A stretch of 64,000 nucleotides of DNA from Desulfovibrionaceae bacterium (GCA_031082225.1 JAVHLG010000006.1:16467-80466), one strand, 5' to 3'. Positions 1 through 20,426 are shown, counted from the first letter of the stretch. Notes: generated by a model from the letters alone, not told the origin. Program-made: numbers and translations.

Positions 1-876
1 GAGCGACGCATAGACACGCAAATCTTCAACCAACTCAGAGTCCGGAAATTCCATGCCGCACGAAAATAAAGCCTCCCCCAAGTTCTTCCCGGTCCCTGTT
101 TCTTGTGCAACGAGGGCAACTCGCTCGCGCAGATAGGCTGTGATGTGGTCACTATTCATCATGCTGTCGAAAATGTGAGTCAGTTGCATGCCTGAGCGCA
201 TGAGGGTGGACAGCGTGTAGAGCCAGACACAACCAACGGTAAGTCTGTAAATGGACCAGGGAGGGATTTGTTCAACGGAGAGCCGCCAGCGGCCTGTCCA
301 TCGGGGCAACGTGATAAGGATGGCGGCCAGGCCAGCCAGAAGCAGAACGAACGTGGCAACGCCAAACGGGGACGTTACAAACGACGTGGCCATGTACATG
401 AGGGCCGCTGGGCCGTGCCAGGCCGTGGGATCGGAGAGCATGGCCAATTTGGGCATGACCAGGACCGACACGACAAGAAGAACCACCGCGACCATGGCCA
501 TCAGAAAGGCAGGGTAAATGAGGGCTCCGGCAACAGCCCGAAGAATCGTTTGGCGTGCTGCAAGCAGGCCTGCGGCAAGGTCAAGGCCCTCGGGAAGGCG
601 GCCTGCCCGTTGGCCGCTTGAGATGAGCATGATCTCCTCTGGCGTGGCAAATCCGGTCAGGCTAGCCCCCAGGTTGTGGCCCCTGCCCAGGTAGTCACTC
701 ACCTGCGCAAAAACGACGGCCGTTGGTGATCGTTGTGCGGCGGCCCGGGCTTGCATTTGCTTCAGGGATTGAGACAGGTTCAATCCGTGGCGGACCTGGG
801 CAGAGAGTTTTTTCCATGTCCTCAGCCGTACAGTGGCGGAAAAGCTTAAACGAGGAAGAATGGATGATGAGAGCAT
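1..876 (-). CDS. pilR: Type IVb pilus inner-membrane platform protein PilR (GspF/PilC family), 5' part; continues past the window edge
   Basis: This gene is absent from the ORF track because it has no stop in the window. My reverse-strand translation starts at the ATG at 876-874, which overlaps the pilQ stop (TAATG). It stays open for all 292 codons: MLSSSILPRLSFSATVRLRTWKKLSAQVRHGLNLSQSLKQMQ... It contains long hydrophobic segments (ALIYPAFLMAMVAVVLLVVSVLVMP, FGVATFVLLLAGLAAILITL). It sits after pilQ, as in R64/PAPI-1 pil clusters. Confidence 0.7.
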   Translation of the reverse strand, partial: MLSSSILPRLSFSATVRLRTWKKLSAQVRHGLNLSQSLKQMQARAAAQRSPTAVVFAQVSDYLGRGHNLGASLTGFATPEEIMLISSGQRAGRLPEGLDLAAGLLAARQTILRAVAGALIYPAFLMAMVAVVLLVVSVLVMPKLAMLSDPTAWHGPAALMYMATSFVTSPFGVATFVLLLAGLAAILITLPRWTGRWRLSVEQIPPWSIYRLTVGCVWLYTLSTLMRSGMQLTHIFDSMMNSDHITAYLRERVALVAQETGTGKNLGEALFSCGMEFPDSELVEDLRVYASL

Positions 877-2423
877 TAAAAACGCCCTCCTTGGACGAAA
901 ATCTGTGTAAAATTCAACGGAACGCCAAGCCGTTCTTCCGCGATGTATGGGTCGACAAGCCCTGCCTTAATCAATTCGACAGCATGCTTCACGTAGCTTT
1001 TCCCTTCTTTCTCCTTAACCCAATATTCATGTGCCCTGGATGTATTGCCAGCACTCAGGTAACTCAGCATCTCCTGGTCAGTGGCGATGAATTCAGCGGC
1101 AACAGTTTGGCCGATAAAGCCTCGTTTCATGCAATTTTCACAGCCATCACCACGAACGTAGACATTTTCAATGTCATCGTTTTTCATTTCACGATAAAGA
1201 CGCTCTTTGACATCTGTAGGAATTGCTTGTTCGCGTTTATCATCAGATAAATCAAAAAAGCGAACTTTGCATATCGGGCATAGTACCGGTATGAGTCTTT
1301 GATACTCAAGACCTGCAAGAACGTTATGATTACAAAGTTGATCTAGTGGATTTTGGAAATGGGTAGCTAGAATCGAAGACATTCTGGCAATAATTCCAAA
1401 AGCATTGTTGGCGTGAAGCGTAGCAAAAACGGCGTGGCCTGTAAGCGCCGCATCGATAGCGGCAACAGCCGCCTCCACATAGCGAATTTCTCCGATCATG
1501 ATCACGTCGGGGTCAGAGCGCATTGCCCCGGCAATAGCGTCTCTGTAGGCGTATGCTCGTTCGATCTTGTCATTGCTGGAAATGAGAACCTGGCGAACCC
1601 CTTTCAAAGGGTACTCCGGCGGGTCTTCGATGCTGAAATAGGCCTTGCCGGGGTTTCTTTCGACTTCAGCCTCCATGATGTGTTTGAGCAATGTGGATTT
1701 CCCGTGGCCGGTAGGTCCGGAAATGATTGTCAGACCGGTGCGCCGGGTTAAAAATTCTGCCGTCTTGCAATGCTCATCGGTAAATCCGAGGCTGGTCATG
1801 CGTTCTGAGAGTGAGCCAGCGGCCGAGGTCGAATCGTACAGAAGACGGAGAGCCATGGAGGTTCCAACGCCATTTTTAGCAAGGGCGCTTTCTATCGGTT
1901 CGCAATGAACGCGAACAGAATGCACTGCGGGAGGGAGATATTCACGCTTTGCGATCCGTCCGTCCTGACGCACGGACGGAGAGAAGCAAGCATCCGCAGA
2001 CTGGCAGAGTTTTTGATATAGGCACCCAATGACTTGTTGGCCGAATTCTCCTTCGAGCTGGGTATAATCAGAAAGCATTCCAAGGATGCGAAACTGGATC
2101 ATGGTGTAAGAACCATAATCAATTAAATGTATGTCAGTTGCCCCTGACGCGTGAGCTTTTGATAATAAATCGATCGCGTATTTCTCTATTTCATTGTCTT
2201 CAAGTTTACCCGTAGAAGATGTAAATTTTGATAATGTGGAATCGAAATATCTTGGATCATGAAACTCACAGGCCAGAATTCCACGACGGCGAAGGCCAGC
2301 AACAAAGGAAACCATTTCGAGATTTCCCTTAAGCTCCTTGCTCATATGTAATGTGCCGTCCAAAAGGACCGTTCGGGAGCGCATGGACTCCGGAAGGTTT
2401 TCCAAGATTGATATTTCCATCAC
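876..2423 (-). CDS. pilQ: Type IVb pilus assembly ATPase PilQ (GspE/PilB family)
   Basis: 515-aa ORF. It has the Walker A GPTGHGKST, an IGEIR Asp-box region and ATLHAN (His box). The tetracysteine CPIC...CENC is typical of the GspE family. Confidence 0.9.
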   Translation of the reverse strand: MMEISILENLPESMRSRTVLLDGTLHMSKELKGNLEMVSFVAGLRRRGILACEFHDPRYFDSTLSKFTSSTGKLEDNEIEKYAIDLLSKAHASGATDIHLIDYGSYTMIQFRILGMLSDYTQLEGEFGQQVIGCLYQKLCQSADACFSPSVRQDGRIAKREYLPPAVHSVRVHCEPIESALAKNGVGTSMALRLLYDSTSAAGSLSERMTSLGFTDEHCKTAEFLTRRTGLTIISGPTGHGKSTLLKHIMEAEVERNPGKAYFSIEDPPEYPLKGVRQVLISSNDKIERAYAYRDAIAGAMRSDPDVIMIGEIRYVEAAVAAIDAALTGHAVFATLHANNAFGIIARMSSILATHFQNPLDQLCNHNVLAGLEYQRLIPVLCPICKVRFFDLSDDKREQAIPTDVKERLYREMKNDDIENVYVRGDGCENCMKRGFIGQTVAAEFIATDQEMLSYLSAGNTSRAHEYWVKEKEGKSYVKHAVELIKAGLVDPYIAEERLGVPLNFTQIFVQGGRF

Positions 2424-2428
2424 CGCTC

Positions 2429-3061
2429 CTATTCAAACGGCAGAATGGTTGCTTTCCCATTCCCGCCACGTCGAATGAAAACGCCGCTACGGCTAACGGA
2501 GGCCACCACGCCTCCGTCAAATCGATCTCCTGGACGCAGTGTCACCAACTCTGATCCCTGGCGAACGATGGCTCTGGCGTGTCCATCAAGACCCTGAACA
2601 GACAAGACGACCGGTCCCGAAGGCGGCGGAGCTGCTGAGGATTTCGGGGGAGCTTCTGCTTCGGAAGGAAGCGATGAGGCGGAATGGGGCGCTGCCACCA
2701 CCACAGGGGCCTTTGGGTTCAGCTTTTCGGCCTCGGCGGCAATGGCGGACTTGAGGCGTATCTCCTCTAGTTCCGCTCGGAGGGCGGTAAGCCCCTCCAG
2801 GTTCCCAGCCACAGGCACTGGAACGGGTTCACGATGAGGGTTGGAGGTGGCCGGTGCCGATGCCTGTCGGCTTCCGGGCCCGGCTTCGCTGGATGATACC
2901 GAGGCAGGTACAGAAAGCGCCGAGCTCGGGGCCGGGGGCAAATGAGGAGATGGAGGAGACGACGTCAGGTGCTCCATGGCCATGGAGGTCATGTAGATAA
3001 GCGGCGGTAAAGCCAAACTGCCGCAGATGATCCAGAAAAGCTTTTTATTCCGGATTTGCAT
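2429..3061 (-). CDS. pilP: Type IVb pilus biogenesis protein PilP-like
   Basis: I trimmed the start to the ATG at 3061 (MQIRNKKLFWIICGSLALPPLIY). The protein has one N-terminal TM segment and a Pro/Ser-rich middle. The C-terminus VLSVQGLDGHARAIVRQGSELVTLRPGDRFDGGVVASV is PilP-like. Its position between pilO and pilQ supports the call. Confidence 0.6.
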   Translation of the reverse strand: MQIRNKKLFWIICGSLALPPLIYMTSMAMEHLTSSPPSPHLPPAPSSALSVPASVSSSEAGPGSRQASAPATSNPHREPVPVPVAGNLEGLTALRAELEEIRLKSAIAAEAEKLNPKAPVVVAAPHSASSLPSEAEAPPKSSAAPPPSGPVVLSVQGLDGHARAIVRQGSELVTLRPGDRFDGGVVASVSRSGVFIRRGGNGKATILPFE

Positions 3062-4304
3062 AGACAACCCCCTTAAGGCTCCATCGGCCTTCTTTGTCCT
3101 GGAAAATTTGTTCGAGAATGAGGCCCGGCAACCCAGTAAATGCCTCGGGAAATGATTGATCGAGAATGATAGCAGCGGGTACGTCACTGAGTTCCCATTG
3201 CCCGCGCTGCCATGGACTTATGATCTCGATCCCTTCTATCGATTTGCGCTCAGGGGAGTGCCAGGACAACTTCAGTCGGCCGCCGATGACCTGCGTTGAC
3301 TGATAGAGCCGCTGTGACGCAGTTTCTCGCATGAACAAAGCATCACCCTGAAGCTGATGGATCTGGGGGATTGCAATCTTAGTGACCGCCTTTTGGGGCG
3401 TTTCGAGGCTCGCGCTTGGAGGGAGGCGGATATAGTCGGCACCCGGCCTGTGCCCCCAGGAAGCGGAAATTTGGTTTGTTTTGGAATCGTAGGCGGCGCC
3501 CTCGATAACCCAGCCGCTGGCCACCGTCGGCAGCGAGAGCATGACCGGAATTATGGCCTGGAGAGTTGAGCGGACATCACTCGCTTCCCGCCAGGGCCGT
3601 GGAAAATGCACTTCAGGGTGAGCCTGGATTTCACGTCGCCGCTGTTCTTTGTTCAGCATGGCCGTGCGGGCAGCTTCCTTGGCCTGAGAGGCGGCGCGTT
3701 GATCGAAAAACAGTTTCAGACCGTAGCCACCCAGAAAGAGAATCCCGAGCGCCGCTGCGATGACGATTCGGTTGCGGCGTTGACTCGGAACCGGATGCAA
3801 AGGATGTAAGGAGCCACGGCGGCGACTCGGCAATGCGAAAGGGAGCGACGGAACGAACGGCGATAACCAGTTCAGGCTGTCAACGGGCGTCTCGCAGGTC
3901 ACCGTTTCCTCAAAATCGGCATCCATGAGCCCACGCAGGGATTTGATCCACGATTCGGCTTCAATCTGTGATGTGAACGCTTGATCACCCATTCCAAGGA
4001 TAAGCCCCTGGGCGGAAGCAAATACCCACCAATACGGACCAGTCTCATCCTCCAGGCAGAACAGACCAAGAAACGAGGGTGAGGGCACCTGGAGAGCGGC
4101 AGCGAGGGCGCGGCGTCCACGCCAGGGTCGAATGTCGCCGCCGGACGAGCCAAATCCGTACTGACGCTGACGGAACACAACCATATCAAACGACTCATCA
4201 TGGCGAGCCTCTTGACGAAGCTCTGAGGTCTTTAATTTGCGGTTGCTCAAAAACCACTGAATGCCAACCGCATATTTTCGATTATGCAATGTGATAGAGC
4301 GCAT
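3045..4304 (-). CDS. pilO: Type IVb pilus biogenesis protein PilO-like
   Basis: 419-aa ORF with one central TM segment (IVIAAALGILFLGGYGLKLFF). It sits between the secretin and pilP. The N-terminus MRSITLHNRKYAVGIQWF resembles ICE/R64 PilO. Confidence 0.6.
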   Translation of the reverse strand: MRSITLHNRKYAVGIQWFLSNRKLKTSELRQEARHDESFDMVVFRQRQYGFGSSGGDIRPWRGRRALAAALQVPSPSFLGLFCLEDETGPYWWVFASAQGLILGMGDQAFTSQIEAESWIKSLRGLMDADFEETVTCETPVDSLNWLSPFVPSLPFALPSRRRGSLHPLHPVPSQRRNRIVIAAALGILFLGGYGLKLFFDQRAASQAKEAARTAMLNKEQRRREIQAHPEVHFPRPWREASDVRSTLQAIIPVMLSLPTVASGWVIEGAAYDSKTNQISASWGHRPGADYIRLPPSASLETPQKAVTKIAIPQIHQLQGDALFMRETASQRLYQSTQVIGGRLKLSWHSPERKSIEGIEIISPWQRGQWELSDVPAAIILDQSFPEAFTGLPGLILEQIFQDKEGRWSLKGVVYANPE

Positions 4305-4305
4305 C

Positions 4306-5889
4306 TTAAACCTCAGCTGATTCGACTGCGATAGTGATGATAAGCAAGGTTCTGTCGGTATTGGTTTTCCTGAACGTGTTGAGAATGCCGACGCTTTTTT
4401 GAATGTCGCGCATTTCTTTTTCGAATCCTGTCAGAACTAGCGTTTGGCCCATTTTCATGGTTGTACGTTGTGAGAAAGCCCGTGTTGATACCTGTGGCAG
4501 TTGGACAGTGATATCACTGGTTGTGAATTCCTTCATTTCATCAAGGGCAGACAAGTTGATATTGTAATGAAGAACAACTCGACGCTGATCCAGGATGTGG
4601 GGGATAACAGTCATGCTAAATCCCGTCGTCACTTCGCCTGGAGTCACCTCCGTGGTCTGCCCGAATTCGCTTTGCGACATCCCCATGCCGGCTAGGTATG
4701 CGGTGCGTTCGATGGCCATGGCCGGGACCGGCTGGTTGCTCATGCAGATGCCTCCGGCAGAAGTAACCTGAGTGGCGTTACCCCACTGTCGGAGCGCTTT
4801 AAGAATTGCCGACGAATCCTTGAGGGTGCCGGATACGATACTTGCGGTCACACTGTTGAGGTCGCCAGACGCCACATTGCCTGTAAATTGAATGTTGCCG
4901 TCTGCAAACATCGACGACACCGAGACACCGATGTCGGAATTGTCATTGACGCTGAGGGACCAGACCTGGATTTTGAGCGCAATCTGGCGCGAAAGTCTTG
5001 TGTTGACGTCGTCAACATAGGTGGTGACTCTGCGGATGATGTCCGGAGCATCGCGGACGGTAATAGTGCCAGCGGCTGGGTTGCTGACAACCGTTCCTTG
5101 TGGAGAGAGCAAGGCTTTGATGGCTGACTCTGTGTCGCTCCAAATGTCAAATTCCCAGGACACGGTGTTTGATTGAGCGTTTTGCGACGATGTATCGGCG
5201 ATAGAGACAGTTTGAGCCGTGCTTCCGATCCCACGCGATCCTGATGAGTCCTTGCTTTTGTTTGTCAGTTGGTTTTCGTAAGTGACCTTCCCTGGAGCAC
5301 CAATGATCGAAAAGGTGCGCACCAACATTTTGGCGAACAGAATGCCTTCGTTCTGGTCATGGTCCCAACCGTATCCGGAGAGCATGGCCACGTGATCCAA
5401 AAGGCCGCGTACGGTCCCTTCGTATGAGATGCTGAGGCCACCGCTGGTGGCGCTCGACACGCCGGCAGAGGGCACCTGGAGCAGGGCCTCCAGATCCATA
5501 TTGATCCCATCCGCCGGCGGCGCGGCGTCGGGATGCGGTTGGGCCGGATGCTTCGGAGCTTTGCCCGGTGCAGTTACGACTGGGGCGCCAGAATCAGTCG
5601 CCACCTGGACAGGGATGCCGAGCAGCGAGCTGATTTCGCTGGCAATCGCAGGGAGCGACCCTTTTGTCCTCAGCGTAACGTGTTTGTTGAGGATCGGATG
5701 CGACATCGGCCCCATGGGGATGGACGTTGCCCCCAGATACGACTCTTCGACAACGTCAACAGTTCGTGGGCGTGACTGTGCCTGAAAAGAGTCGGCTTTT
5801 TCCTCTACGGCCTGCATCATTTTTATGGATTTAGGGTTCGGAGAACATGACATAAGAAGCAAAATAAGAATGATGAATATACGATGCAT
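4306..5889 (-). CDS. pilN: Secretin lipoprotein PilN (type IVb pilus secretin)
   Basis: I set the start at the ATG at 5889 (MHRIFIILILLLMSCSPNP, with a lipobox). The track start at 5907 is a TTG. The secretin-type C-terminal domain reads GQTLVLTGFEKEMRDIQKSVGILNTF...TLLIITI. Confidence 0.8.
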   Translation of the reverse strand: MHRIFIILILLLMSCSPNPKSIKMMQAVEEKADSFQAQSRPRTVDVVEESYLGATSIPMGPMSHPILNKHVTLRTKGSLPAIASEISSLLGIPVQVATDSGAPVVTAPGKAPKHPAQPHPDAAPPADGINMDLEALLQVPSAGVSSATSGGLSISYEGTVRGLLDHVAMLSGYGWDHDQNEGILFAKMLVRTFSIIGAPGKVTYENQLTNKSKDSSGSRGIGSTAQTVSIADTSSQNAQSNTVSWEFDIWSDTESAIKALLSPQGTVVSNPAAGTITVRDAPDIIRRVTTYVDDVNTRLSRQIALKIQVWSLSVNDNSDIGVSVSSMFADGNIQFTGNVASGDLNSVTASIVSGTLKDSSAILKALRQWGNATQVTSAGGICMSNQPVPAMAIERTAYLAGMGMSQSEFGQTTEVTPGEVTTGFSMTVIPHILDQRRVVLHYNINLSALDEMKEFTTSDITVQLPQVSTRAFSQRTTMKMGQTLVLTGFEKEMRDIQKSVGILNTFRKTNTDRTLLIITIAVESAEV

Positions 5890-5893
5890 TGTT

Positions 5894-7045
5894 TTAATCC
5901 TCGGCAACCTCTAAAACATGGTTTCCCTGGTACACTGTGACTCTCAGTGCATGTCCGTTGTTATGGAGGCCACGAAATAGCTGTTTTACAGCGTTCACGA
6001 AGTCGCAATGAAATTGCGATGCGGCAGACATTTCGTAGTCGTTTTTTGACTTCCATATGAGCTTGTACCGGGCACGGCTCGTCCATTCTTCAAGTTGGGT
6101 CAACAGACTGCCTGGCTCGATGCCCCATGTCTCGGCCGGATCGGCCGGGGGGGGCGTTTCTGGTGGGACGGGAACGGGCTCCGGAGCTGGTGTGGACGGC
6201 GACGGGGCCGAGGCCTGCGCCGCAGGTGACGGCGTCTGCTCGGGGAGAGAGGCCGGGGCTTCTTTGTGCAGGTATGGCGACTGGCTCTGCGTGCCCTGGG
6301 CCACCGGGGCAGGAGGAGTCACGGCAGGCGATGTGGCCGGTGCAGCCTCAAGCGACGATGCCAAAACGGGTGGAGTCACTTTCGCGGTGTCCACCGGCGG
6401 AAGCTGCTGAAGGACGGGGGTAACCGCAGGCATGAGCTCCGGAGCTGGTGCGGCCGGCGGCAGGGCTGGGGCTTGCCCTGTGGCAGGCTGCGTCGGTCCG
6501 GACGACGAGGCCGGAGCCTGGGGGGCGGCATCGGGCAGCGTGTAGGACTCAGGAGCCGCCGCAGGAGAGCTCTGTTGGGCATGAAAAGGCTCATCGAGAG
6601 GTGCTGGTGCCTGACGGGTCGATTTCGCTCCAAGGCGGCGCGTCGTACCAAATCCAACGCCGTCCGAGGTTCTCACCTGCAGGTAGCAGACCGAGGGCGT
6701 AGTCTCCTGCACGATGTCGAGAGTGTACGCCACCAGGATACCGGGAGACTCGGGAGTAGCCGGCGCAGACACGGCAAACCCTCGTCCTCTGAGGGCGGAT
6801 TCGAAGTCGGTCCCAAAATACGTGTCGGTCTGCACCAGGGCCAGGGTGGTACCCCCTGGAGGGAATTTCTGGGCAAGGGTGTCGGCGGCCTGGTCGGCCA
6901 AAGCCCGGCCATCGTCCGGATAGTCCTGGCTCATTCCGTCATAGGCAGACAGAGCCAGACCTCCGGAGCCCCGATGTTGATGGACGCAACCAGCACCCCC
7001 AAAAAGGAGGACTACACTCACAGTAATGAAGATGATACGTGCCAT
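5894..7045 (-). CDS. Fusion lipoprotein: TrbH-like N-domain, Pro/Ala-rich linker, PilL/TcpQ-like C-domain
   Basis: The lipobox is LLFGGAGC. The N-terminal ~140 aa (ALADQAADTLAQKFPPGGTTLALVQTDTYFGTDFESALRGRGFAV...LVAYTLD) follow the TrbH pattern. The linker of about 160 aa is P/A/S-rich. The C-terminal ~80 aa (WGIEPGSLLTQLEEWTSRARYKLIWKSKNDYEM...AVKQLF...VYQGNHVLEV) follow the TcpQ/PilL pattern. Confidence 0.65.
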   Translation of the reverse strand: MARIIFITVSVVLLFGGAGCVHQHRGSGGLALSAYDGMSQDYPDDGRALADQAADTLAQKFPPGGTTLALVQTDTYFGTDFESALRGRGFAVSAPATPESPGILVAYTLDIVQETTPSVCYLQVRTSDGVGFGTTRRLGAKSTRQAPAPLDEPFHAQQSSPAAAPESYTLPDAAPQAPASSSGPTQPATGQAPALPPAAPAPELMPAVTPVLQQLPPVDTAKVTPPVLASSLEAAPATSPAVTPPAPVAQGTQSQSPYLHKEAPASLPEQTPSPAAQASAPSPSTPAPEPVPVPPETPPPADPAETWGIEPGSLLTQLEEWTSRARYKLIWKSKNDYEMSAASQFHCDFVNAVKQLFRGLHNNGHALRVTVYQGNHVLEVAED

Positions 7046-7047
7046 GG

Positions 7048-8064
7048 CTACTGTTTCCGTATGGTGATGCGTTGTTGCTTGCTCCCGACGCCGGAAATCA
7101 AAATCGCCTCGGGGAAAACACCGTCAACGATCATGCTCGATTCTTTCATCCGAAAATTTGCCATGGTGTCCTCGCCACCGTTACGGACAAGGAGAACCGG
7201 CGCGTCGCCGGATTGGATTGAGGGCGGAAAATTGATGAACATCTGTTTTCCGTCATCATAGACCTGAAGCGGTTTCCAGGACGTTTTGCCCTTGATGTCG
7301 TAGGCGAAGTTGAGCGTGCTTGGGTCCGAGGCGGGTTCCAGGGACTTCATTTGCTGCTCTTTCTCTCTGGCGTCTTTGGCCACGGAAAGTTTTTCTCGAA
7401 GACTTGATCCGCCAAGCCCCGAGCCACCATCGGGGTAGAGGAATCCCACATAGGGGGTCAGACCGGTGCGTTGGCTAATGAGCTTGAGGTGGTAAACCCG
7501 ACGATCCGTGGTGATGACGGCGCTGGTCATGAGCCCCGCGTCCATGGGCTTAAGTAGAACATGAGTGGTGTCGCCGGATTTGGCGGTATCAGCGATCCAC
7601 CGGGCTGAATCGCCAATCACGACCTCGTTGATATTTTCCCCCGGCTGGAGTTCGATGTCGCAGATCAGATGCGGGACGCCGATGACGGTCGGGTACGACG
7701 CACCGTAGGTGTACATGATCTTGCCGTTGGCCTGGATCGGTGGCGCGCCTTGCGCCTCCCAGGAAGCGGCCAGATTGATCGCGTGGCGTTCCTTGGCCGT
7801 CAGGGGGACTGCGGTTCGGCTCAGATAATCCGCTGGTGGCAACGGGTCAGAGACCCTGCCCCCTTTGGACAGCAGGGAATCCAGATGGTCCAAATTGTCG
7901 GGACGCGCACTCTCGGCGGAGGGGAGCGGGGGCTGCCCAACCGTCTGTGTGGCCGGGGCCGTCTTGGCCTGGGTCTGGGCCAGGCCGGGACTAGGTGTTT
8001 GCTGCGCCTCCGCCGAAAACGGAAGCGAAAGTGCCAGGGCCAACGTGATTAATAACTTGTTCAT
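7048..8064 (-). CDS. trbG: P-type conjugative transfer protein TrbG (VirB9 family)
   Basis: I trimmed the start to the ATG at 8064 (MNKLLITLALALSLPFSAEA signal peptide). Conserved TrbG/VirB9 stretches are ITTDRRVYHLKL, YVGFLYP and QMFINFP. Confidence 0.85.
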   Translation of the reverse strand: MNKLLITLALALSLPFSAEAQQTPSPGLAQTQAKTAPATQTVGQPPLPSAESARPDNLDHLDSLLSKGGRVSDPLPPADYLSRTAVPLTAKERHAINLAASWEAQGAPPIQANGKIMYTYGASYPTVIGVPHLICDIELQPGENINEVVIGDSARWIADTAKSGDTTHVLLKPMDAGLMTSAVITTDRRVYHLKLISQRTGLTPYVGFLYPDGGSGLGGSSLREKLSVAKDAREKEQQMKSLEPASDPSTLNFAYDIKGKTSWKPLQVYDDGKQMFINFPPSIQSGDAPVLLVRNGGEDTMANFRMKESSMIVDGVFPEAILISGVGSKQQRITIRKQ

Positions 8065-8072
8065 CGTGAGTC

Positions 8073-8780
8073 CTATCGCTTGGGTTCCATGATGGTGGAC
8101 GAGGACATGGAAATGACGAAGACGCCTCCCGGATTGCGCAAGATTGCGGAATCCGTTGTGGGCGGCTCGATTTGGACAGCCAGTGTCGCTTGGAACGTCC
8201 CTTGGTTCATCAGGACGCCGGTGTGATTCCGAGTTGTTTCGACCCATTCCACGCGCCACGAATTGGCGCTCACCGGCGACGGCAGTGATTTGATGTCCAC
8301 CTGGACGAGCAAATTCTTGGCGCGCTCATAGGGGTTATTCGCCACAAACCATTCGCGGAGTTCCCCTTTGGCCGCGCCGGCCACGGAAAATTGCAGCCGC
8401 TCCAGCATCCGTTTTTGGAGGTCGAGGTCTGCTGTGACCGTTCTCCAGTTGACGACGAAGTTGGACAATTCCGCCTGGATGACGCGGGTAGGTGTGGCTG
8501 ATGGCACAGATGCTCGATCAACGGCTTTGATGTTGCCGAGGTTGTCTACGGCGACAACATAGGGAACAACCTTGTTTTGCGTTGCCTGGATCACGTTGCC
8601 GCCTACAGCGATAACCGTGACACTGAGGCATATAATTGCTACCCACATCCATCGTCTCTCACGCTGTATGTAACTCCCGTATCGCTCAAGCCATTCCTCG
8701 CGGCCTCGCACGTAAGAGGATTTTTCGGTATCAGGCCGTTGAGCTTCAAAAGCTGCCTTTGTTCGAGATTTCCAAAGCAT
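8073..8780 (-). CDS. trbF: Conjugal transfer protein TrbF (VirB8 family)
   Basis: 235 aa with a single TM segment (WMWVAIICLSVTVIAVGGNVI). The VPYVVAVDNLG motif and NTF2-like C-domain are typical of TrbF/VirB8. Confidence 0.85.
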   Translation of the reverse strand: MLWKSRTKAAFEAQRPDTEKSSYVRGREEWLERYGSYIQRERRWMWVAIICLSVTVIAVGGNVIQATQNKVVPYVVAVDNLGNIKAVDRASVPSATPTRVIQAELSNFVVNWRTVTADLDLQKRMLERLQFSVAGAAKGELREWFVANNPYERAKNLLVQVDIKSLPSPVSANSWRVEWVETTRNHTGVLMNQGTFQATLAVQIEPPTTDSAILRNPGGVFVISMSSSTIMEPKR

Positions 8781-8789
8781 GAGATTCTC

Positions 8790-9032
8790 CTATGAGGGTT
8801 GCTTGAAACCGGTGAGAGCTCCGGCGCGAAGCAGTCGCAGCTTTTGTATTTCCTTGCGCATCTCCGTGAGACTTGCGGACTCGCGCAATGATTTCAGTCT
8901 GCATTTCACAGCATCGACCTTGAAGAAGAGAAAATCCATCTCAGTTTGAAGATCTTCGAGCTGTTCAAGAAGACATTCAAAATCAAGATCACTTTTTTCC
9001 ATGTCCAAAACTTCACCTGGGTTTGTGCTCAT
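8790..9032 (-). CDS. Small acidic coiled-coil hypothetical protein
   Basis: 80-aa ORF between trbL and trbF, with heptad-like LEQLEDLQTEMD...LKSLRES...IQKLRLL. I recognise no family. Confidence 0.4.
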   Translation of the reverse strand: MSTNPGEVLDMEKSDLDFECLLEQLEDLQTEMDFLFFKVDAVKCRLKSLRESASLTEMRKEIQKLRLLRAGALTGFKQPS

Positions 9033-9232
9033 TGGAGTTCAAAATGGAACATCGTCCATCCCCTCCGTATCCGGCGGGGAGGCTGGATCAAACTCTTCAG
9101 CCGAAGGACCGGATTCCGCTTGTTTCTATTGGCCGCCTTTCGAGTAGCTGGATGTATGCGCGGGGGCCGCGTTATCATCGTCTTTTCGTTCTTTAGGCCT
9201 TTCGGTTTTGCAATATTTCGTTCTTTCGTTCT

Positions 9233-10447
9233 TTACGCCTTCCCTCCACCTCCGGATTCACCCGCACTTCCTCCACTGGAGTCTCCGGAACTACCTTTCG
9301 GCTGAGGCGGATTCATCTTCATCTCCTGCAGGCGTGATTTCAGGTGGACACCCATACTTTCAGTGTGCGAAAATTTTCCCTGCGGCTGCTGACGCGCAGC
9401 TTGGTGGCCATCCCACATGGCCCGGGCCGTTGAGGCGACCCGGCCCATGCCTGACTTCCCGGCGGCCCCTGCCACCTGGGAAGCGGTACCGAGGTTTCTG
9501 GCGGTCTGGATCGCCCCCATGGCCCCTCCCACGGCTCCACCCACGGCCCCGCCGACCATGCCGCCCGCCATGCTGGCCAAGCCGCTGCCACTGCTGCTCA
9601 CGTTGGAGCCGGAGATGATCCCGGATGCGATGCCGGGCACTTCCTTGGTCAGGAGCAGGAGGATCAGAACAGCCGCGACGTTGGCCACCAGATCAGCGAT
9701 GGAGAGACTGCCCGTTGACATGCTGCTGATGAACTGCACCCCGATCCCGGCGACGAGGGTCATGACCAGGAGTTTGAACCCGGTAGCAAAGACGTAGCGG
9801 ATGACGTTCACAGCATAGTCCTTGAAGAGCGTGCTCCCGCCCAATCCCATAAGAAGAACGGCCGCTGCAACGCCGATGTAGGCCTCACATTTCGCGAGAA
9901 TTATCATCCCAGTAATCAGGGCAAAGCAAATCAAAGCGATTGCGCATAGGACAATGATGATGAGACCTTTTATTGGCTCCCATCCGGAAAAGCTTTCAAA
10001 GGCAGATACAACCATATTTACACCTATCTCGACGGGGTCTTCAACATTGAACGACGGAGATACATCCCCTGCCAAGGCTGGGACCCCTTTTATTATTCCG
10101 TTTGTCCAGGATTCGTAATTTTCTATGCACCAAAGGAAAAAACCAATCATGAGCAGCATCATGATAAACTGCTTAATGATATTTGGGATGTCGTCTCGAT
10201 TGAGTGCGACATTTACCCCGAGCATGGCTACGCTCAGCATGGCGGACCATCCAAAGAGCTTCATGGCCACCTTCTTCAATGGTTCGATCCATTGTTGTGT
10301 GGCTTGTTCATATTTGCCGACAATCTGGCCGATAATTGTTGCTCCTCCAGTTTGAGCATAAGATTTTTCTTGCATGGCGCACACTATTGTTGCAATAATA
10401 ACTGAAACAACAACAAAGGAGATGGTAATGCGAGTGATGTCTTTCAT
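9233..10447 (-). CDS. trbL: P-type conjugative transfer protein TrbL (VirB6 family)
   Basis: I trimmed the start to the ATG at 10447 (MKDITRITISFVVVSVIIATIVCA). The protein has multiple TM segments and a Gly-rich tail (GGMVGGAVGGAVGGAMG) typical of TrbL. Confidence 0.85.
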   Translation of the reverse strand: MKDITRITISFVVVSVIIATIVCAMQEKSYAQTGGATIIGQIVGKYEQATQQWIEPLKKVAMKLFGWSAMLSVAMLGVNVALNRDDIPNIIKQFIMMLLMIGFFLWCIENYESWTNGIIKGVPALAGDVSPSFNVEDPVEIGVNMVVSAFESFSGWEPIKGLIIIVLCAIALICFALITGMIILAKCEAYIGVAAAVLLMGLGGSTLFKDYAVNVIRYVFATGFKLLVMTLVAGIGVQFISSMSTGSLSIADLVANVAAVLILLLLTKEVPGIASGIISGSNVSSSGSGLASMAGGMVGGAVGGAVGGAMGAIQTARNLGTASQVAGAAGKSGMGRVASTARAMWDGHQAARQQPQGKFSHTESMGVHLKSRLQEMKMNPPQPKGSSGDSSGGSAGESGGGGKA

Positions 10448-10664
10448 GCTTATTTCTCTGCTTGTCTTTATGATTTCTGCATGCAGCGATTCATCAAAGA
10501 TTGATGATCTGACTAAGGAAAACGCCGCTCTTGCAACAGAACTCAAAGAATGCCGTGAAGCTGCAAAAAAGACAGCTCTGCGGGAAGAAGATAATAAAAA
10601 AGAAGCAGAAGCGTTTAAACGCGTCAAAGAGGAGTTAAAAAACATGAATAAAACACCTTTTTAA
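10428..10664 (+). CDS. Small lipoprotein encoded antisense in the trbJ-trbL gap (trbK position)
   Basis: An AAGGAG Shine-Dalgarno lies 6 nt before the ATG at 10428. The N-terminus is MRVMSFMLISLLVFMISAC, with a lipobox ISAC. The mature part is about 60 aa, charged and helical. The last 27 aa are about 70% identical to the TrbJ C-terminus. Confidence 0.55.
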   Translation: MRVMSFMLISLLVFMISACSDSSKIDDLTKENAALATELKECREAAKKTALREEDNKKEAEAFKRVKEELKNMNKTPF

Positions 10665-11461
10665 AATTGTGTCTTGTTCATGTTGCTTAGTTCGTTTTTA
10701 ACTCGTTGAAATGCCTCTATCTCTTTTGCGTTTTCTTCATCTTTGATTTGTTGTCTCTTGCTGTCCTCTGCCATTTTTTGAACGTCAGCCTGGGCAGAAA
10801 CAGCAAGGAGCTGCCTGAGTTTTTGCATCTCATGGAGTTGCATGCCAGCGAGTTGGTTGCCCGCCTGAATGGCCTGCATCTGTCCCTCAGGCGTATCCAG
10901 AAGGTCGTTGAGTTGGGAATCCAGCTCAGCGGCCTTCTCTTCCAATTCTTGGATTTGCTGCCCCGACACCTGGATGGCCGCCTTTTGGGCGCGATCCCCA
11001 TCGTCCGACATCTTGGAGTACATCTCGCGGTATTGGCTCGCCGCGTTGGCCGACCGGGCAATGTCCATGATGCCCGTTCGGCCGGTGTAGACCTGATCAA
11101 AGATCTGGCTCAGTCCCTCCACATCGCCACGCAACGTGTCCAGACTGCGGGTGAGGGACATCAACCTGTTGAATTCACCTTGGAGTTTGCTTTTGATTTG
11201 TCCTGGCAGGCTGACCGTGTTTTTGATCATGTTCTCTAATTGATCGAACGTGTTTGTGACCATCTGTATCTGTTGCTGCGTTTGTTCGATGGCTTCGCTG
11301 ACCTGAGTATAAAGCTCTTGGAGCTGGGATAGATTCGTTATCCTGTCCAGGGCCTGAGTGACCCATTCAGAGCAGTTTGTGCAGTGAACCACCCACTGTG
11401 CATGTGCAGATGTGCTCATCAGGATCATTGCCAGCATGAAAATGACGCGAAGAGATTTCAT
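10661..11461 (-). CDS. trbJ: P-type conjugative transfer protein TrbJ (VirB5-like)
   Basis: I set the start at the ATG at 11461, which has a GGAG 6 nt upstream. The track start at 11473 is a TTG. The signal peptide is MKSLRVIFMLAMILMSTSAHA. The coiled-coil TrbJ pattern is WVVHCTNCSEWVTQALDRITNLSQLQELY. Confidence 0.85.
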   Translation of the reverse strand: MKSLRVIFMLAMILMSTSAHAQWVVHCTNCSEWVTQALDRITNLSQLQELYTQVSEAIEQTQQQIQMVTNTFDQLENMIKNTVSLPGQIKSKLQGEFNRLMSLTRSLDTLRGDVEGLSQIFDQVYTGRTGIMDIARSANAASQYREMYSKMSDDGDRAQKAAIQVSGQQIQELEEKAAELDSQLNDLLDTPEGQMQAIQAGNQLAGMQLHEMQKLRQLLAVSAQADVQKMAEDSKRQQIKDEENAKEIEAFQRVKNELSNMNKTQF

Positions 11462-11482
11462 GGTTTTCTCCAATACGCTTTG

Positions 11483-13891
11483 TTATGACGCACGTTCACG
11501 AAGCCATTCCATTTGCCATGTCTCTCCATGAGAGACTTCAAGCTCTTTTATCCTGGAGATGCTATCAGGATCACTTACACCAACGAACGCCAGAGTCTCT
11601 TTCTGTAACGCTAATTGTATAAGCCTGCGTCCGTTCGGAGTATCCATGTAATAATCACGCTTTGGTGTAGCTGAGGCAATGATTTCAATCTGTCGGTCAT
11701 TTAAACCGAATTTTTTGTACATATCTGCGCGAGTCTCTTGCCGTGCCGTCAGGTCGGCCAAATAAATTTTTGTCGGACACGATTCGACAATGACGTCCAT
11801 GATTCCTGAACTGGCAACGTCAGTAATGCTTTGGGTGGCCAGGATGACAGCGCAGTTCTTTTTGCGCATGACCTTCAATTGTTCTTTGATTTTGGCCTTG
11901 GCAACGGGATCGGCAAACATCACCCAGGCCTCATCGAATATGATGAAACCAGGTTGGCCATGCAGGGATCGCTCGATGTAGCGAAACAGGTAGAGCAGGA
12001 CAGGAATGATATTCTTTGGGCCAAAAGCCATAAGTTCTTCGATTTCAAAGACCATGAAACGTGATATTCCAAAGGAATCCTCGGAAGCGTCGAGCAGGCT
12101 GCCCATGGCTCCTTCAATGGTATAGTGCGTCAGCCCTTCCTTGATACGGTGATCCTGCACCGCGTCCTTGAAATGCGACAGGCTCCGGAACTCCTTCGAG
12201 TCGGCACGGAGCTGGACCATGGCGTTGTGGATGGCCGCACGGTTGCCGGGCGTGACCGTGGTCCCCTGGAGCTCAAGGAGCGTTGCGATCCATTCCTCGG
12301 CCCAGGACATGTCGGCGGGGTCGTCGATGTGGGCCAGGGGCGCGAAGGACAGGGCTTTGCCCGTGCCGATCTCGTAATGGGCGCCGCCGCACCCCTTGCA
12401 GGCGGCGTACATGCTCATGCCCTTGTCAAAGGCAAAAATCTGGGCGTTCGCGTATCTCCGGGTCTGAACGGCGATGAGCGCCAAAAGGGTGGACTTGCCG
12501 GAGCCGGTCGGGCCAAGAATCGCGGTGTGCCCCAGGTCGCGTACATGCAGGTTGAACCAAAACGGCGTGGAACCGTCTGTGGTGCAGACCATCAGCGGCG
12601 GTGAATGCTCTGGATAGAACGGGCACGGGCAGAATTGTTCGCCCGTCCACACGCTGGACAGGGGAAGCAGGTCTGCCAGGTTGAGGGTGTTGAGGATCGG
12701 CCGGCGCAGGTTCGCAAACCAGTTGCCAGGATGCGTCCCGAGCCAGGCTTCCACAGCATTGATGCGCTCAAAGCGGCAGCCGAAACCGAGACTGAGGATC
12801 AGGCGGCGCAGCTCACGTGCCCAGTCGCGTAGAAGTTCCCTGTTGTCGTGCTGGAGGACGATGCACGACGTCAGGAATCCCGCTCCCACGCGGCCGCCCT
12901 GGACGTCCACGAGCGCCTGTTCGGCGTCCTCGACCATCAGGGCCGCGTCACGGTTGGCACGGGCGTTGGGGTTGTTGAAAAACTTGTCGATGAATCGGAA
13001 TACCTTCTGCTGCCAGCCTTTCCGGAAGCTGTTGATTTCCTTGGTAGCTTCCAGTTGGTCCATGCAGATGAACCGGGTGGAATACCGATATTGAAGTTTG
13101 AGGCCGTCCAGGGCCGCCAGCATGGCGGGCCAAGATTCTTGCGGAAAACCGTCAATGCCCAGAACCGCAATGTGTTGTTCACCAACCCTGGGAGCGAGCC
13201 CCGCGATGAAATCGTCGGAGCCCAGGAGGGCATCCAGATACATCGGGATTTTGGGGACACGTACTGGCTGTTCCATCCCGGTGATGCAATGCTGAATATG
13301 AGAGAGCAAAGAACTGTACAAATGTTCTGTGCCGTCATCGTCAACGATGCTGTAATCGTTGAGACGGCGTAGTTTAAGGATTGATGATAGCGCGTCATCC
13401 AGTTCAGAGATGGTGTTTTGAAACGCGTTGATCGCCCGTTCCAGGGCGTTGGATTGCTGCATTCCGGTTTGCGCCAAAGATGAAACCCTGTCACTGCCGA
13501 ATGGAATTTTATAACTCAGGAGAATGACGGTTTTTGTCCGGAAACAGACATCATCACTGAAGAATTTCCGGCGCTCATCGTCGATAAGCTGCGAAACATG
13601 ATCCGGAAAGTGGCTGGCCTCGCGCGGAGGATAGGCGTGGTAGTTCGTCCGGACGGCATCCACCTGGATCATCCAGCCGGAGCCAAGAAGTCTCACGGCG
13701 CTGTTGAACTGCATGGAGACGTAGGCGAGTTCGTCTTCCGTGGAACTGGCCGTGTCCTGGCCCCGGGCTGTGAATCCAGCGATAAGCGTGCCGTCTTTGC
13801 AAAGGACCACGCCCGGCGCGCAAAGGACGGCATAGGGCAGTAAATCCGAAAAACCGCGCTTCTGCGTCCGGAAGTTTCGCAGGTTGAGCAT
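11483..13891 (-). CDS. trbE: Conjugal transfer ATPase TrbE (VirB4 family)
   Basis: 802 aa with the Walker A GPTGSGKSTLL and the Walker B IIFDEAW. Confidence 0.92.
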   Translation of the reverse strand: MLNLRNFRTQKRGFSDLLPYAVLCAPGVVLCKDGTLIAGFTARGQDTASSTEDELAYVSMQFNSAVRLLGSGWMIQVDAVRTNYHAYPPREASHFPDHVSQLIDDERRKFFSDDVCFRTKTVILLSYKIPFGSDRVSSLAQTGMQQSNALERAINAFQNTISELDDALSSILKLRRLNDYSIVDDDGTEHLYSSLLSHIQHCITGMEQPVRVPKIPMYLDALLGSDDFIAGLAPRVGEQHIAVLGIDGFPQESWPAMLAALDGLKLQYRYSTRFICMDQLEATKEINSFRKGWQQKVFRFIDKFFNNPNARANRDAALMVEDAEQALVDVQGGRVGAGFLTSCIVLQHDNRELLRDWARELRRLILSLGFGCRFERINAVEAWLGTHPGNWFANLRRPILNTLNLADLLPLSSVWTGEQFCPCPFYPEHSPPLMVCTTDGSTPFWFNLHVRDLGHTAILGPTGSGKSTLLALIAVQTRRYANAQIFAFDKGMSMYAACKGCGGAHYEIGTGKALSFAPLAHIDDPADMSWAEEWIATLLELQGTTVTPGNRAAIHNAMVQLRADSKEFRSLSHFKDAVQDHRIKEGLTHYTIEGAMGSLLDASEDSFGISRFMVFEIEELMAFGPKNIIPVLLYLFRYIERSLHGQPGFIIFDEAWVMFADPVAKAKIKEQLKVMRKKNCAVILATQSITDVASSGIMDVIVESCPTKIYLADLTARQETRADMYKKFGLNDRQIEIIASATPKRDYYMDTPNGRRLIQLALQKETLAFVGVSDPDSISRIKELEVSHGETWQMEWLRERAS

Positions 13892-14169
13892 CAGTTCTTT
13901 CTCCAGATGCCGGATTTCGCGGGATACATGATCTGGAGCCGCATGTGACGAAACCAGATCTTGCTCATGATCGGATCGGCCTTGGCCATTTTCCTGAGCA
14001 CAAACGTGGTCATGATGTAGAAGAGAACGGCGACGAGCCCGGAAATCAGGGTGAACCCTCCGACGCCGACCAGAAAGGAGAACAAGACGTTCAGCAGCAC
14101 AAGCTCGCGCTCCGCACCCATGACATGGTTGTGCCGGTGCAACGACTGGAAGATAGGATATGCTCGCAT
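13891..14169 (-). CDS. trbD: Conjugal transfer protein TrbD (VirB3 family)
   Basis: 92 aa with two TM segments, located between trbC and trbE. The pattern IFQSLHRHNHVMGAERELV resembles TrbD. Confidence 0.8.
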   Translation of the reverse strand: MRAYPIFQSLHRHNHVMGAERELVLLNVLFSFLVGVGGFTLISGLVAVLFYIMTTFVLRKMAKADPIMSKIWFRHMRLQIMYPAKSGIWRKN

Positions 14170-14179
14170 ACGTTAACTC

Positions 14180-14500
14180 CTAAAGGACCGCGCCCGAGAA
14201 CGAGAACAGACCTTCTACGATCGCAGACGCGAACGCGATGAAGCTGATCCCGAAGACGACGCCGAGGAGCAGCTTGAAGCCGCCCGACAAGTCGTCCTTG
14301 TTGAAGATGTAGACGACTCCGCACAGGGCCATGGCCGTGATCGAAATCCATTTTCCGGCAGGGCCGGTGATCGTGCCCACCACCTTTTCAAGAGGCGTGG
14401 CGAACTGCTCGATCCCACCCGAGGCGAACGCCTGGGGGCAGAAAATCAGAGTCAGGAACAGACAAAAGGGCACCTGTTTGGCAAAGCTCACCAGTCGCAT
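14180..14500 (-). CDS. trbC: Conjugative pilin TrbC (VirB2 family)
   Basis: 106 aa with a long signal peptide and two hydrophobic helices. It is in the canonical position after trbB. Confidence 0.8.
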   Translation of the reverse strand: MRLVSFAKQVPFCLFLTLIFCPQAFASGGIEQFATPLEKVVGTITGPAGKWISITAMALCGVVYIFNKDDLSGGFKLLLGVVFGISFIAFASAIVEGLFSFSGAVL

Positions 14501-15543
14501 TATGCAGCCTCCTCAAGCTTGTATTGTTTCCACCACTGCTCTTCTTTCACTTTCGCATTGTGATAGCGATAAATGAACTCCGTATCGTACTCTTGCTTCG
14601 ATTCGTCATACCCATGCACTTTCATTACTTCGGTTACACGCCTCCCTTCTTCAGTTTTTGCGATAAAAATGATGATATCCACAGCCTGGCCAATCAACGA
14701 TTGCATCGGAGACGAGACGCGTTCGGCAACGAGGTCGCGTAAACGTTGGAAAGTCTCGAACGCGCTGTTGGAGTGCAGCGTCCCCAGGCCCCCGTCATGG
14801 CCGGTATTCCACGATTTCAGCAGATCATGAGCGGAGCCGTCGCGGACTTCGCCGACAATGATGCGGTCGGGGCGCAGCCGGAGCGTGGTTTTGAGCAGTT
14901 TGCCGTGATTCGTGTGGTCGGTGGTTCGAAACTCCACCCGGTTGGCGCTGGTCACCATGAGTTCGCGTGTGTCCTCTATGGTAACGATCCGGTCGTGCGG
15001 ACAAAGCCGCGAGATGGTCTCGATGAGGCTGTTGGTGAGCGTGGTCTTTCCGGAGCCGGTCCCGCCGGCCACCAGGATGTTTTGACGCCGTTCTATGGCA
15101 GCCTCGAAGAAGTTCTTGAGCCCGGCCGGGAAGACTCGAGCGCTCACGTATTCGTCCAAAGTGAAAACCTTGGACGCCTTTTTGCGGATTGCGAAGGCAG
15201 GCCCGGCCACAATGGGCGCGTCCATGCCCTCGAAGCGGGAGCCGTCCAAGGGGAACTCCCCTTCGACCACGGGCTCTTCACGGGTGATGACGGTATTTAG
15301 GGCGGCGGCCACCAGGGAGATGATCCGGCGGCCCTTGTAGGTGTCGATCCGGCCGACGTTCTCCATGGGTCGACCGAACCGTTCGATCCAGAGATTCCCG
15401 TCCGGATTGAGCATGATCTCCAGAACCTCCGGGTCCTGGAGCGCGGCCAGGGCCGTCTCACCCAGGGAGGCCCGCAGGCTGACCAAGCGTTTCTCATGGA
15501 CCTGGCGTTCCGCGTCGGTGGCAAAGGCGGTGGTCTGGTTCAT
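14500..15543 (-). CDS. trbB: Conjugal transfer ATPase TrbB (VirB11 family)
   Basis: I trimmed the start to the ATG at 15543, which overlaps the stop of the upstream ORF (MNQTTAFATDAERQ...). The Walker A is GGTGSGKTT. The motifs IVGEVRD and GHDGGLGTLHSN are typical of VirB11/TrbB. Confidence 0.9.
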   Translation of the reverse strand: MNQTTAFATDAERQVHEKRLVSLRASLGETALAALQDPEVLEIMLNPDGNLWIERFGRPMENVGRIDTYKGRRIISLVAAALNTVITREEPVVEGEFPLDGSRFEGMDAPIVAGPAFAIRKKASKVFTLDEYVSARVFPAGLKNFFEAAIERRQNILVAGGTGSGKTTLTNSLIETISRLCPHDRIVTIEDTRELMVTSANRVEFRTTDHTNHGKLLKTTLRLRPDRIIVGEVRDGSAHDLLKSWNTGHDGGLGTLHSNSAFETFQRLRDLVAERVSSPMQSLIGQAVDIIIFIAKTEEGRRVTEVMKVHGYDESKQEYDTEFIYRYHNAKVKEEQWWKQYKLEEAA

Positions 15544-15980
15544 CAGTGCCCTACGTTGCTCAGGATGACGGCCAGGACGTTTGCCAGGGACATGGCCACT
15601 ACGATGATGGTGAGCCAGCGCATGTTGCTCTGGTATGTCCCGAGACTTTTGTTGCAGCTTTGAAATATAGCTTTGACCTCGGATACAGATGACTGCGAGA
15701 TACCTTTGGTGAGGGTGTCGGCAGCCTGTTTGGCTTGCTCCAAGTATTTCGATCCCTCGCCGTTCAGATACGCAGAGAATCCTTCGCGGTGCTTCGCCGC
15801 GAATGCATCGAACGCTCCCATGTAGGCGTTGAGAATCAAAACCAGGAGGCACAACGGATCATCCCTGTCGATGGAGACGCCAGCCGCGCGGTGCAGGATG
15901 GCTCTGACCTCGTCGATGCTCAGGCCAATTCCTGACTCTGGCACAGACATGGGGGATTCCGTGGTTTCCGAATTGTTCAC
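15543..15980 (-). CDS. Hypothetical protein with a C-terminal TM anchor (traM position)
   Basis: 145-aa ORF with tight overlaps to both neighbours. The C-terminal TM segment is WLTIIVVAMSLANVLAVIL. No motif is recognised, so only the position after the traL-like gene suggests a leader-operon protein. Confidence 0.5.
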   Translation of the reverse strand: MNNSETTESPMSVPESGIGLSIDEVRAILHRAAGVSIDRDDPLCLLVLILNAYMGAFDAFAAKHREGFSAYLNGEGSKYLEQAKQAADTLTKGISQSSVSEVKAIFQSCNKSLGTYQSNMRWLTIIVVAMSLANVLAVILSNVGH

Positions 15981-16825: not shown

Positions 16826-16828
16826 GTC

Positions 16829-17206: not shown

Positions 17207-17219
17207 GATGTAACCCTAC

Positions 17220-18185: not shown

Positions 18186-18237
18186 CTTTTCAGCCTTTTG
18201 AATCTGGCCAAAAAAAGGATAAAAAAGATGCTGACGC

Positions 18238-18266: not shown

Positions 18267-18271
18267 TTAGT

Positions 18272-20421: not shown

Positions 20422-20426
20422 GCATA

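Follow-up and report, generated by a model that had tools for sequence, protein, structure and literature searches.

A type IVb pilus cassette nested between trbH and trbI of a Ti-type conjugation operon, and a TrbH-PilL hybrid lipoprotein, in elements of Desulfovibrionaceae

Type IVb (thin) pili accompany conjugation systems of several kinds. In IncI2 plasmid R721, whose mating-pair-formation (MPF) system is of type MPF_T, a P/VirB-type type IV secretion system (T4SS) and a thin pilus are encoded co-oriented and interleaved in one array (pilL-pilM-x-virB1-B2-B3-B4-B8-B9-B10-B11-virD4-x-pilN-...-pilV). The thin pilus of IncI2 plasmids (R721, TP114, mcr-1 plasmids) is a mating-pair stabiliser (PMC9045228, PMC7508951, PMC12282955), on which mating in liquid or in the gut depends (PMC7508951, PMC9045228). 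In Polaromonas sp. JS666 plasmid 1 and in pTK9001 of Thioalkalivibrio K90mix, virB9-virB10 run straight into TcpQ-pilN-O-P-Q-R-S(-T-M-V), while PAPI-1, R64 and pDsulf-L2-2 carry the gene set pilL-N-O-P-Q-R-S-T-M/V in operons separate from their MPF_I or MPF_G systems. The Ti-type trb operon has the order trbB-C-D-E-J-K-L-F-G-H-I. Here we describe another arrangement, found in a 64,000-nucleotide stretch of a metagenome-assembled genome (MAG) of a Desulfovibrionaceae bacterium (GCA_031082225.1, JAVHLG010000006.1:16467-80466; hereafter the window) and in its relatives, in which a type IVb pilus cassette is nested inside a Ti-type trb operon and trbH is fused to pilL. The combination itself, P-type T4SS plus type IVb pilus, is a known one; only its layout is new, not the kind of apparatus.

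We think it likely that the locus belongs to an integrative and conjugative element (ICE) with a Ti-type Trb (MPF_T) operon, into which a type IVb cassette encoding an accessory mating pilus has been placed between trbH and trbI, with fusion of trbH to pilL. All Trb and pil genes of the window lie on the minus strand in the order trbB-C-D-E-J-L-F-G, a gene for a 383-aa lipoprotein, and pilN-O-P-Q-R (Table 1). Families were assigned by Pfam and NCBIfam profile searches with curated cutoffs, and these confirm the order from trbB through trbG into the pil genes that an earlier interpretation of the window, made from its sequence alone (the sequence-only reading), had proposed. Its tight junctions are confirmed as well: neighbouring genes of the array are 1-8 nt apart or overlap, trbG ending in TAG followed by cc and the next ATG, and pilQ and pilR sharing TAATG. 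The P-type set TrbB/C/D/E/J/L/F/G is present in Ti-type order and consists of the same families as the Ti-type operon (TrbB_P, TrbJ_Ti, TrbG_Ti, TrbL_P and, in relatives, TraF_Ti above cutoffs). The thin-pilus proteins PilN, PilO, PilP, PilQ and PilR are likewise all encoded; PilN (TIGR02520) and PilP (TIGR03021) score below the curated cutoffs and are therefore divergent members, and PilN also matches BfpB in the PDB (9.4e-36).

According to the sequence-only reading, pil genes occupy the VirB10/TrbI slot and no TrbI-like open reading frame (ORF) is visible. Within the window the second statement is correct: tblastn finds no TrbI-like sequence in the whole 64 kb, very probably because the window stops inside pilR. 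The continuation is seen in L092, a 29.7-kb Logan contig reached via an identical 383-aa fusion protein. Its nucleotide identity to the window is 97.5% over positions 1-9014 and 91% over 9171-15544, and the window part of PilR is 100% identical to the N-terminal part of its PilR. Past the window edge L092 completes pilR and goes on with pilS, pilT (encoding an ATPase), pilM, pilV and trbI (405 aa, PF03743), the last starting ~3.2 kb outside the window edge at position 1. Seven other loci continue from pilR to pilV and trbI in the same way, and their PilQ is 98% (L081), 71% (L087 and L088), 56% (L089), 48% (L090), 47% (L001) and 46% (L091) identical to that of the window. TrbI of the relatives has 405-426 aa and matches PF03743 and the IncP-type model (2e-81). 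The coupling-protein gene traG follows trbI in L081, L087, L089, L090, L091 and L001, and traF (TraF_Ti 1.3e-38, above cutoff) follows traG in L081, L087 and L089. PilS, PilV (Shufflon_N), PilM and PilT are encoded in both L092 and L081 and are 93-99% identical between them. The apparently missing VirB10 is therefore in all probability a window-edge effect, and the claim of a real absence is not supported. In the window copy itself trbI has very probably not been replaced and would lie after pilV, at the same distance beyond position 1 as in L092. The sequence-only reading had itself named a trbI just beyond the window, together with a separate pil promoter, as evidence that would speak against it; the former was found in the relatives, the latter was not. 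What survives of the single coupled unit it proposed is the tight, co-oriented Ti-type Trb/type IVb array with no separate pil promoter detectable; the novel chimeric apparatus replacing VirB10 does not.

In the relatives, pilV is followed either directly by trbI or by a gene for a ~200-aa phage tail-collar domain protein (L001 15724-16350, L090 16290-16892, L091 15832-16428). The carriers of this gene are marine Maridesulfovibrio-type relatives, and the window lineage (L081, L092) is devoid of it. The protein may be an extra tip or receptor-binding component.

The insertion site is defined by sister elements L096-L099, found via TrbG homologues at 48% identity, which have the same backbone and no pil genes. 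Their order is DUF5338 - TraL-like ParA - x - trbB-C-D-E-J-L-F-G - trbH (155 aa) - trbI - traG - traF - small ORF - ArdC/Toprim, and the pil-less sister elements also encode an integrase, AlpA and a MOB relaxase. Compared with these elements and with the Ti-type operon, the window family has 10.5 kb of pil genes between trbH and trbI, and its trbH, lacking a stop codon of its own, is fused to the TcpQ domain of pilL. Since pil-less elements have trbG-trbH-trbI, and since the N-terminal part of the fusion is homologous to TrbH, the cassette (pilL'-N-O-P-Q-R-S-T-M-V) was inserted exactly at the border of trbH and trbI.

Comparison of L092 with L081 reveals that this cassette is exchanged as a module. 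Positions 9735-20285 of the former and 5098-15655 of the latter, which begin within trbG, 264 nt before its end, and reach to the stop of pilV, are 92% identical in nucleotide sequence, whereas in the trb genes on either side identity is no more than 45-70% (at the amino acid level, 51% for TrbI and 35% for TrbL). The last ~264 nt of trbG (window 7048-7311) thus form part of the exchanged high-identity cassette. The element is a mosaic, its identity to L081 falling from ~90% to 65-70% at position 7311, inside trbG, and its identity to L092 changing, as noted, from 97.5% (1-9014) to 91% (9171-15544). L092 also contains an extra ~1.6-kb block between trbL and trbF, with PFIN and HTH_3 genes on the opposite strand, which the window lacks.

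A second position of the cassette was found in human-gut relatives of the D. falkowii type (L085, L086, L108-L128), where it is again led by a TrbH-TcpQ gene and lies between trbD and trbE. Here a single nucleotide separates trbG from trbI, and the sequence examined (L108-L128) contains no stand-alone trbH, which suggests that the hybrid, containing the only TrbH-like domain there, still serves the T4SS. The exact Trb-pil gene order is common across Desulfovibrionaceae genomes and metagenomes. As to whether it already represents a common annotated ICE family, a point raised beforehand, the order is indeed common, and we found no paper describing the family: it is widespread among Desulfovibrionaceae, with no description found in the literature. 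A PilQ scan of genome contigs returned one syntenic genome, L001, the others being generic PilB/GspE loci, and the only match to the 15.6-kb region that megablast found among plasmids was a trivial one to trbB, in a truncated trb operon without a usable trbH.

The most interesting feature of the locus is the hybrid lipoprotein itself. TrbH is a VirB7-like outer-membrane lipoprotein of the T4SS core, and TcpQ is a secretin-binding domain. AlphaFold2, run with 21 homologues, predicts two confident domains, a TrbH domain at ~40-137 and a TcpQ/BfpG-like domain at 300-383, with a disordered proline-rich linker of ~160 residues (142-299) between them. Residues 48-132 are 42% identical to the stand-alone TrbH of pil-less L096 (BLASTP, E 2e-15), hhalign relates the N-domain to stand-alone TrbH with 99% probability (E 4.5e-18), and NCBIfam TrbH models match eight of eight family members tested (best 1.9e-11). 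We considered whether the TrbH similarity is noise, the Pfam match of the window protein being sub-threshold (E 0.007), and rejected this on account of the NCBIfam matches and the comparison with stand-alone TrbH. Nor does every PilL have a TrbH-like domain, as the PilL proteins of R721 and pDsulf-L2-2 are without it. Searched against PDB sequences, the TrbH-like domain gave chance matches only (E > 0.2), and Foldseek found no convincing match for it, LptE and HPRT being weak.

The C-domain resembles BfpG of the 17:17 BfpB-BfpG secretin complex (PDB 9u5s) both in sequence (E 1e-4) and in predicted structure, BfpG in 9u5s being the top Foldseek match (TM 0.79, E 2e-5); by homology, it would bind the secretin. 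Of the 150 top-ranking representatives at 50% identity, ~88 matched both domains, a widespread architecture whose named carriers are Maridesulfovibrio ferrireducens, Maridesulfovibrio frigidus, Solidesulfovibrio carbinoliphilus and Desulfovibrio spp. The linker varies in length, compact forms totalling ~240 aa, and contains a LysM domain in some relatives. Within the literature searched, no description was found of a TrbH/PilL fusion or of a type IV pilus encoded on a Desulfovibrio ICE.

The hybrid can be understood in either of two ways, as a lipoprotein with two functions, one for each machine on its own, or as a physical tether between both. In the latter case it would dock the Trb outer-membrane core to the PilN secretin, and channel and retractile pilus would be one mating organelle, a possibility that we regard as tentative and rather doubtful. 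On the model of VirB7 and VirB9, the partner of the TrbH domain would be TrbG, through its C-terminal domain, and the C-domain of the tether would hold the secretin as BfpG does BfpB. Two observations fit with such a tether: the C-terminal 88 aa of TrbG travel with the exchanged cassette, and the human-gut variant has no stand-alone trbH. If true, independent fusions such as the VirB9-OmpA-TcpQ protein of Polaromonas would reflect selection for coupling in MPF_T-linked type IVb pili.

That type IVb pili occur only with MPF types other than P, as the sequence-only reading implied, is contradicted by R721, pTK9001 and Polaromonas JS666 plasmid 1, all MPF_T. R721 shares with the window family the P/VirB-type T4SS and thin pilus in one co-oriented array. 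However, its VirB10 is encoded upstream of the main pil block, it has a PilU peptidase, a lytic-transglycosylase PilT and a shufflon, its proteins are 22-33% identical to those of the window family, and it is an enterobacterial plasmid rather than a chromosomal island. Neither the gene order nor the close protein similarity of the IncI2 plasmid family is thus found here. In the Polaromonas plasmid and pTK9001, which have proteobacterial hosts, the cassette is appended after virB10, not nested before it. The PilL-like protein of Polaromonas (L095 11993-13306) is also a hybrid, composed of a VirB9 C-terminal domain (Pfam CagX 4.3e-15), OmpA and TcpQ; its fused domain is VirB9-like, not TrbH-like as in the window family. 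At its 5' end the gene overlaps the stop of virB10. The PilL-like protein of pTK9001 (L093 13142-13849) displays a weaker version of the VirB9-hybrid pattern.

PAPI-1, like the window family, has an ATPase-type PilT and no dedicated peptidase; PilL of PAPI-1, R64 and pDsulf-L2-2 is without a TrbH domain. Among the plasmids examined, the closest homologues are encoded by the MPF_I plasmid pDsulf-L2-2 of Nitratidesulfovibrio vulgaris (PilN 34.5%, PilS 39%, PilM 41% and PilV 37% identical), R721 being more distant (PilN 26%, PilV 28%). These similarities point to recruitment of the cassette within the Desulfovibrionaceae mobilome.

If the cassette does encode an accessory mating pilus, the DNA channel would be formed by the Trb system, whose pilin is TrbC, while the co-transcribed thin pilus (PilS pilin, PilV tip adhesin, PilQ and PilT ATPases, PilN secretin) would be a mating-pair-stabilising organelle catching recipients in liquid. 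It would extend, bind recipients through PilV and retract, a PilT ATPase being present; nesting within the trb operon would give it the same regulation as the T4SS, and the hybrid lipoprotein would serve both machines. Gene content and order, insertion site, fusion and modular exchange are read from the sequences themselves. What the pilus does in mating is proposed here after R64, TP114 and PAPI-1, accessory type IVb pili being known to aid liquid and gut mating (PMC12282955, PMC9045228, PMC12857230); that the fusion protein acts in both machines is a proposal as well.

Several points weigh against this interpretation. The Trb system is complete only by proxy, trbI, traG and traF being supplied by relatives; for the window copy, trbI, traG, relaxase and integrase are all inferred in this way. 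No dedicated prepilin peptidase (PilU, A24) and no shufflon or Rci is encoded between pilL and trbI in any relative, and pilin maturation must presumably rely on a host enzyme. At the trbG/pil junction, a sigma-70 consensus scan, which is not calibrated for Desulfovibrionaceae, found no promoter or terminator above chance. Finally, the NCBI protein records of the MAG include none for the hybrid lipoprotein or pilP, although both ORFs are intact; the two genes (5894-7045 and 2429-3061) have apparently been left unannotated. Accessions of the products around them are consecutive (TrbG ...653, PilN ...652, PilO ...651, PilQ ...650).

Alternatively, the pilus cassette could be cargo for adhesion, biofilm formation or host colonisation that takes no part in DNA transfer. 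Type IVb pili such as TCP and BFP serve in colonisation, and the resemblance of the secretin is to BfpB and that of the TcpQ domain to BfpG. A shufflon is missing, and some relatives have the phage tail-collar gene after pilV. In the loci examined, however, the cassette never occurs alone but always inside a trb operon, to which it is joined by overlapping junctions. The gene at its head is a fusion with one for a T4SS component, the plasmid clusters nearest to it (pDsulf-L2-2, R721) specify conjugative thin pili, and PilV bears the Shufflon_N domain of conjugative adhesins. We therefore consider mere cargo improbable.

More improbable still is that the element of this MAG is a decaying remnant, no longer proficient in transfer, whose arrangement has no present function. 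One might think so from the absent NCBI records for the fusion gene and pilP, from the truncated traG of sister elements L098 and L099, and from the fact that no integrase or relaxase is seen, although these would lie outside the window. Yet none of the 20 ORFs in the window is disrupted, and their junctions are coupled. L092, which comes from an independent sample, has a fusion protein 100% identical to that of the window, and the family keeps the same order down to 46% PilQ identity. Least tenable, and in our view next to negligible, is a replacement of VirB10/TrbI by the pil block, in which a T4SS without its core channel subunit would use the PilN secretin as outer-membrane conduit: the window does lack TrbI-like sequence and has pil genes directly after trbG and the fusion gene, and a comparable chimera was proposed for PAPI-1 (PMC12857230), but TrbI follows right after pilV in 97.5%-identical L092 and is present in all eight other loci reaching that far, and trbG and trbI are adjacent in the gut variant, so that for the relatives such a replacement is refuted.

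We also examined the surroundings of the operon. By exact protein look-ups (MDQ7830650-MDQ7830670), the chromosomal genes next to the element belong to clusters that include Desulfolutivibrio sulfodismutans, and the host MAG is related to Desulfolutivibrio. In 2-kb blocks, the GC content of the window is 47-62% across 1-20.3 kb and mostly 61-72% beyond, the lower-GC island ending at a tRNA-Glu(CUC)/tRNA-Lys pair (tRNA-Glu itself at 20346-20421). Because of its lower GC and its end at these tRNA genes, a position and a deviating composition as expected of ICEs, we take this region as the end of an integrated element: by these signs, the window contains an integrated conjugative element, represented by its right-hand 20 kb and abutting tRNA-Glu. 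Upstream of trbB runs the backbone HTH_36 - DUF5338 - ParA/TraL - x, and the same module precedes trbB in L085/L086 and L096-L099, that is, whether or not a relative has the pil cassette. Genes for HTH_36 (321 aa), DUF5338, a VVA0879-family CxxC protein (269-aa ORF) and Bro-N proteins occupy 16829-19876, from the module upstream of trbB towards the tRNA genes. Between the Bro-N gene and tRNA-Glu, at the island edge, a 120-bp unit is repeated in tandem (19892-20183, 2.4 copies, 81% matches), producing a spurious 142-aa ORF at 19873-20301; the repeat could be related to an attachment site.

Table 1. Features of the Trb-pil locus and its borders, in window coordinates, with the supporting matches
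Feature	Position	Strand	Evidence and remarks
pilR (platform protein, T2SSF)	1..876	-	Pfam T2SSF 1.9e-18; 292 of ~353 codons, gene cut by window end
pilQ (assembly ATPase), MDQ7830650.1 (called from ATG at 2345)	876..2423	-	Pfam T2SSE 2e-55
pilP	2429..3061	-	TIGR03021 1.1e-5, sub-threshold; position kept in all relatives
pilO (PilO2-type), MDQ7830651.1	3045..4304	-	Pfam PAP_PilO 7.4e-7, above cutoff
pilN (type IVb pilus secretin lipoprotein), MDQ7830652.1	4306..5889	-	TIGR02520 2.9e-71 (240 bits, cutoff 288); Pfam Secretin
trbH::pilL hybrid lipoprotein gene (383 aa)	5894..7045	-	Pfam TcpQ 7.9e-17; lipobox G19-C20
trbG (VirB9, 338 aa), MDQ7830653.1	7048..8064	-	TIGR02775 TrbG_Ti 7.7e-59, above cutoff
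trbF (VirB8), MDQ7830654.1	8073..8780	-	Pfam VirB8 1.1e-44
80-aa conserved ORF between trbL and trbF	8790..9032	-	No family match; homologues in same place in L081, L092
trbL (VirB6)	9233..10447	-	Pfam TrbL 1.2e-21; TIGR02783 9.7e-43, above cutoff
Small antisense lipoprotein gene, trbK position	10428..10664	+	Weak EexN match 2e-4
trbJ (VirB5-like)	10661..11473	-	TIGR02780 TrbJ_Ti 1.6e-36, above cutoff
trbE (VirB4 ATPase), MDQ7830659.1	11483..13891	-	PRK13830 898.7 bits, cutoff 810
trbD (VirB3)	13891..14169	-	Pfam VirB3 2.4e-14; NCBIfam TrbD 1e-22
trbC (VirB2-type conjugative pilin)	14180..14500	-	Pfam TrbC 4.7e-16
trbB (VirB11-type ATPase, 347 aa)	14500..15543	-	TIGR02782 TrbB_P 8.3e-120, above cutoff; 100% identical in L092
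145-aa ORF	15543..15980	-	No family match; stop overlaps trbB ATG; 145-aa gene in same place in L092
TraL-like ParA ATPase	15977..16825	-	Pfam CbiA; NCBIfam PRK13886 TraL 2.4e-52
tRNA-Glu(CUC) + tRNA-Lys(UUU)	20346..20502	-	ARAGORN; right-hand limit of lower-GC island

Two small genes of the array, the antisense lipoprotein gene between trbJ and trbL and the 80-aa ORF between trbL and trbF, had been overlooked in the sequence-only reading. The former, on the plus strand, converges with trbJ on the minus strand (window 10374-10741), and a 79-nt inverted repeat without spacer (10584-10741) spans the 3' ends of both genes. Through this repeat, the C-terminal ~20 aa of the small lipoprotein mirror the C-terminus of TrbJ, and the two proteins end in nearly the same peptide (TrbJ ...EAFQRVKNELSNMNKTQF; small lipoprotein ...EAFKRVKEELKNMNKTPF). 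The tail varies among L081, L087, L088 and L092, yet in each of them it matches the TrbJ of its own element. Located at the trbK position, the small lipoprotein is a possible entry-exclusion protein; the shared tail possibly reflects either exclusion specificity by mimicry of TrbJ or concerted evolution via the palindrome.

The relatives that extend beyond the window correct the tempting but very probably wrong inference of a T4SS without VirB10. They show instead that a whole thin-pilus set behaves as an exchangeable cassette inside a conjugation operon, at two operon positions. The TrbH-TcpQ and VirB9-OmpA-TcpQ hybrids offer a handle on whether accessory type IV pili physically integrate with the secretion channel. 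Mobile elements of Desulfovibrionaceae, including human-gut Desulfovibrio, are poorly described. As such pili are known to raise transfer both in liquid and in the gut, elements of this family may matter for gene flow among sulfate reducers.

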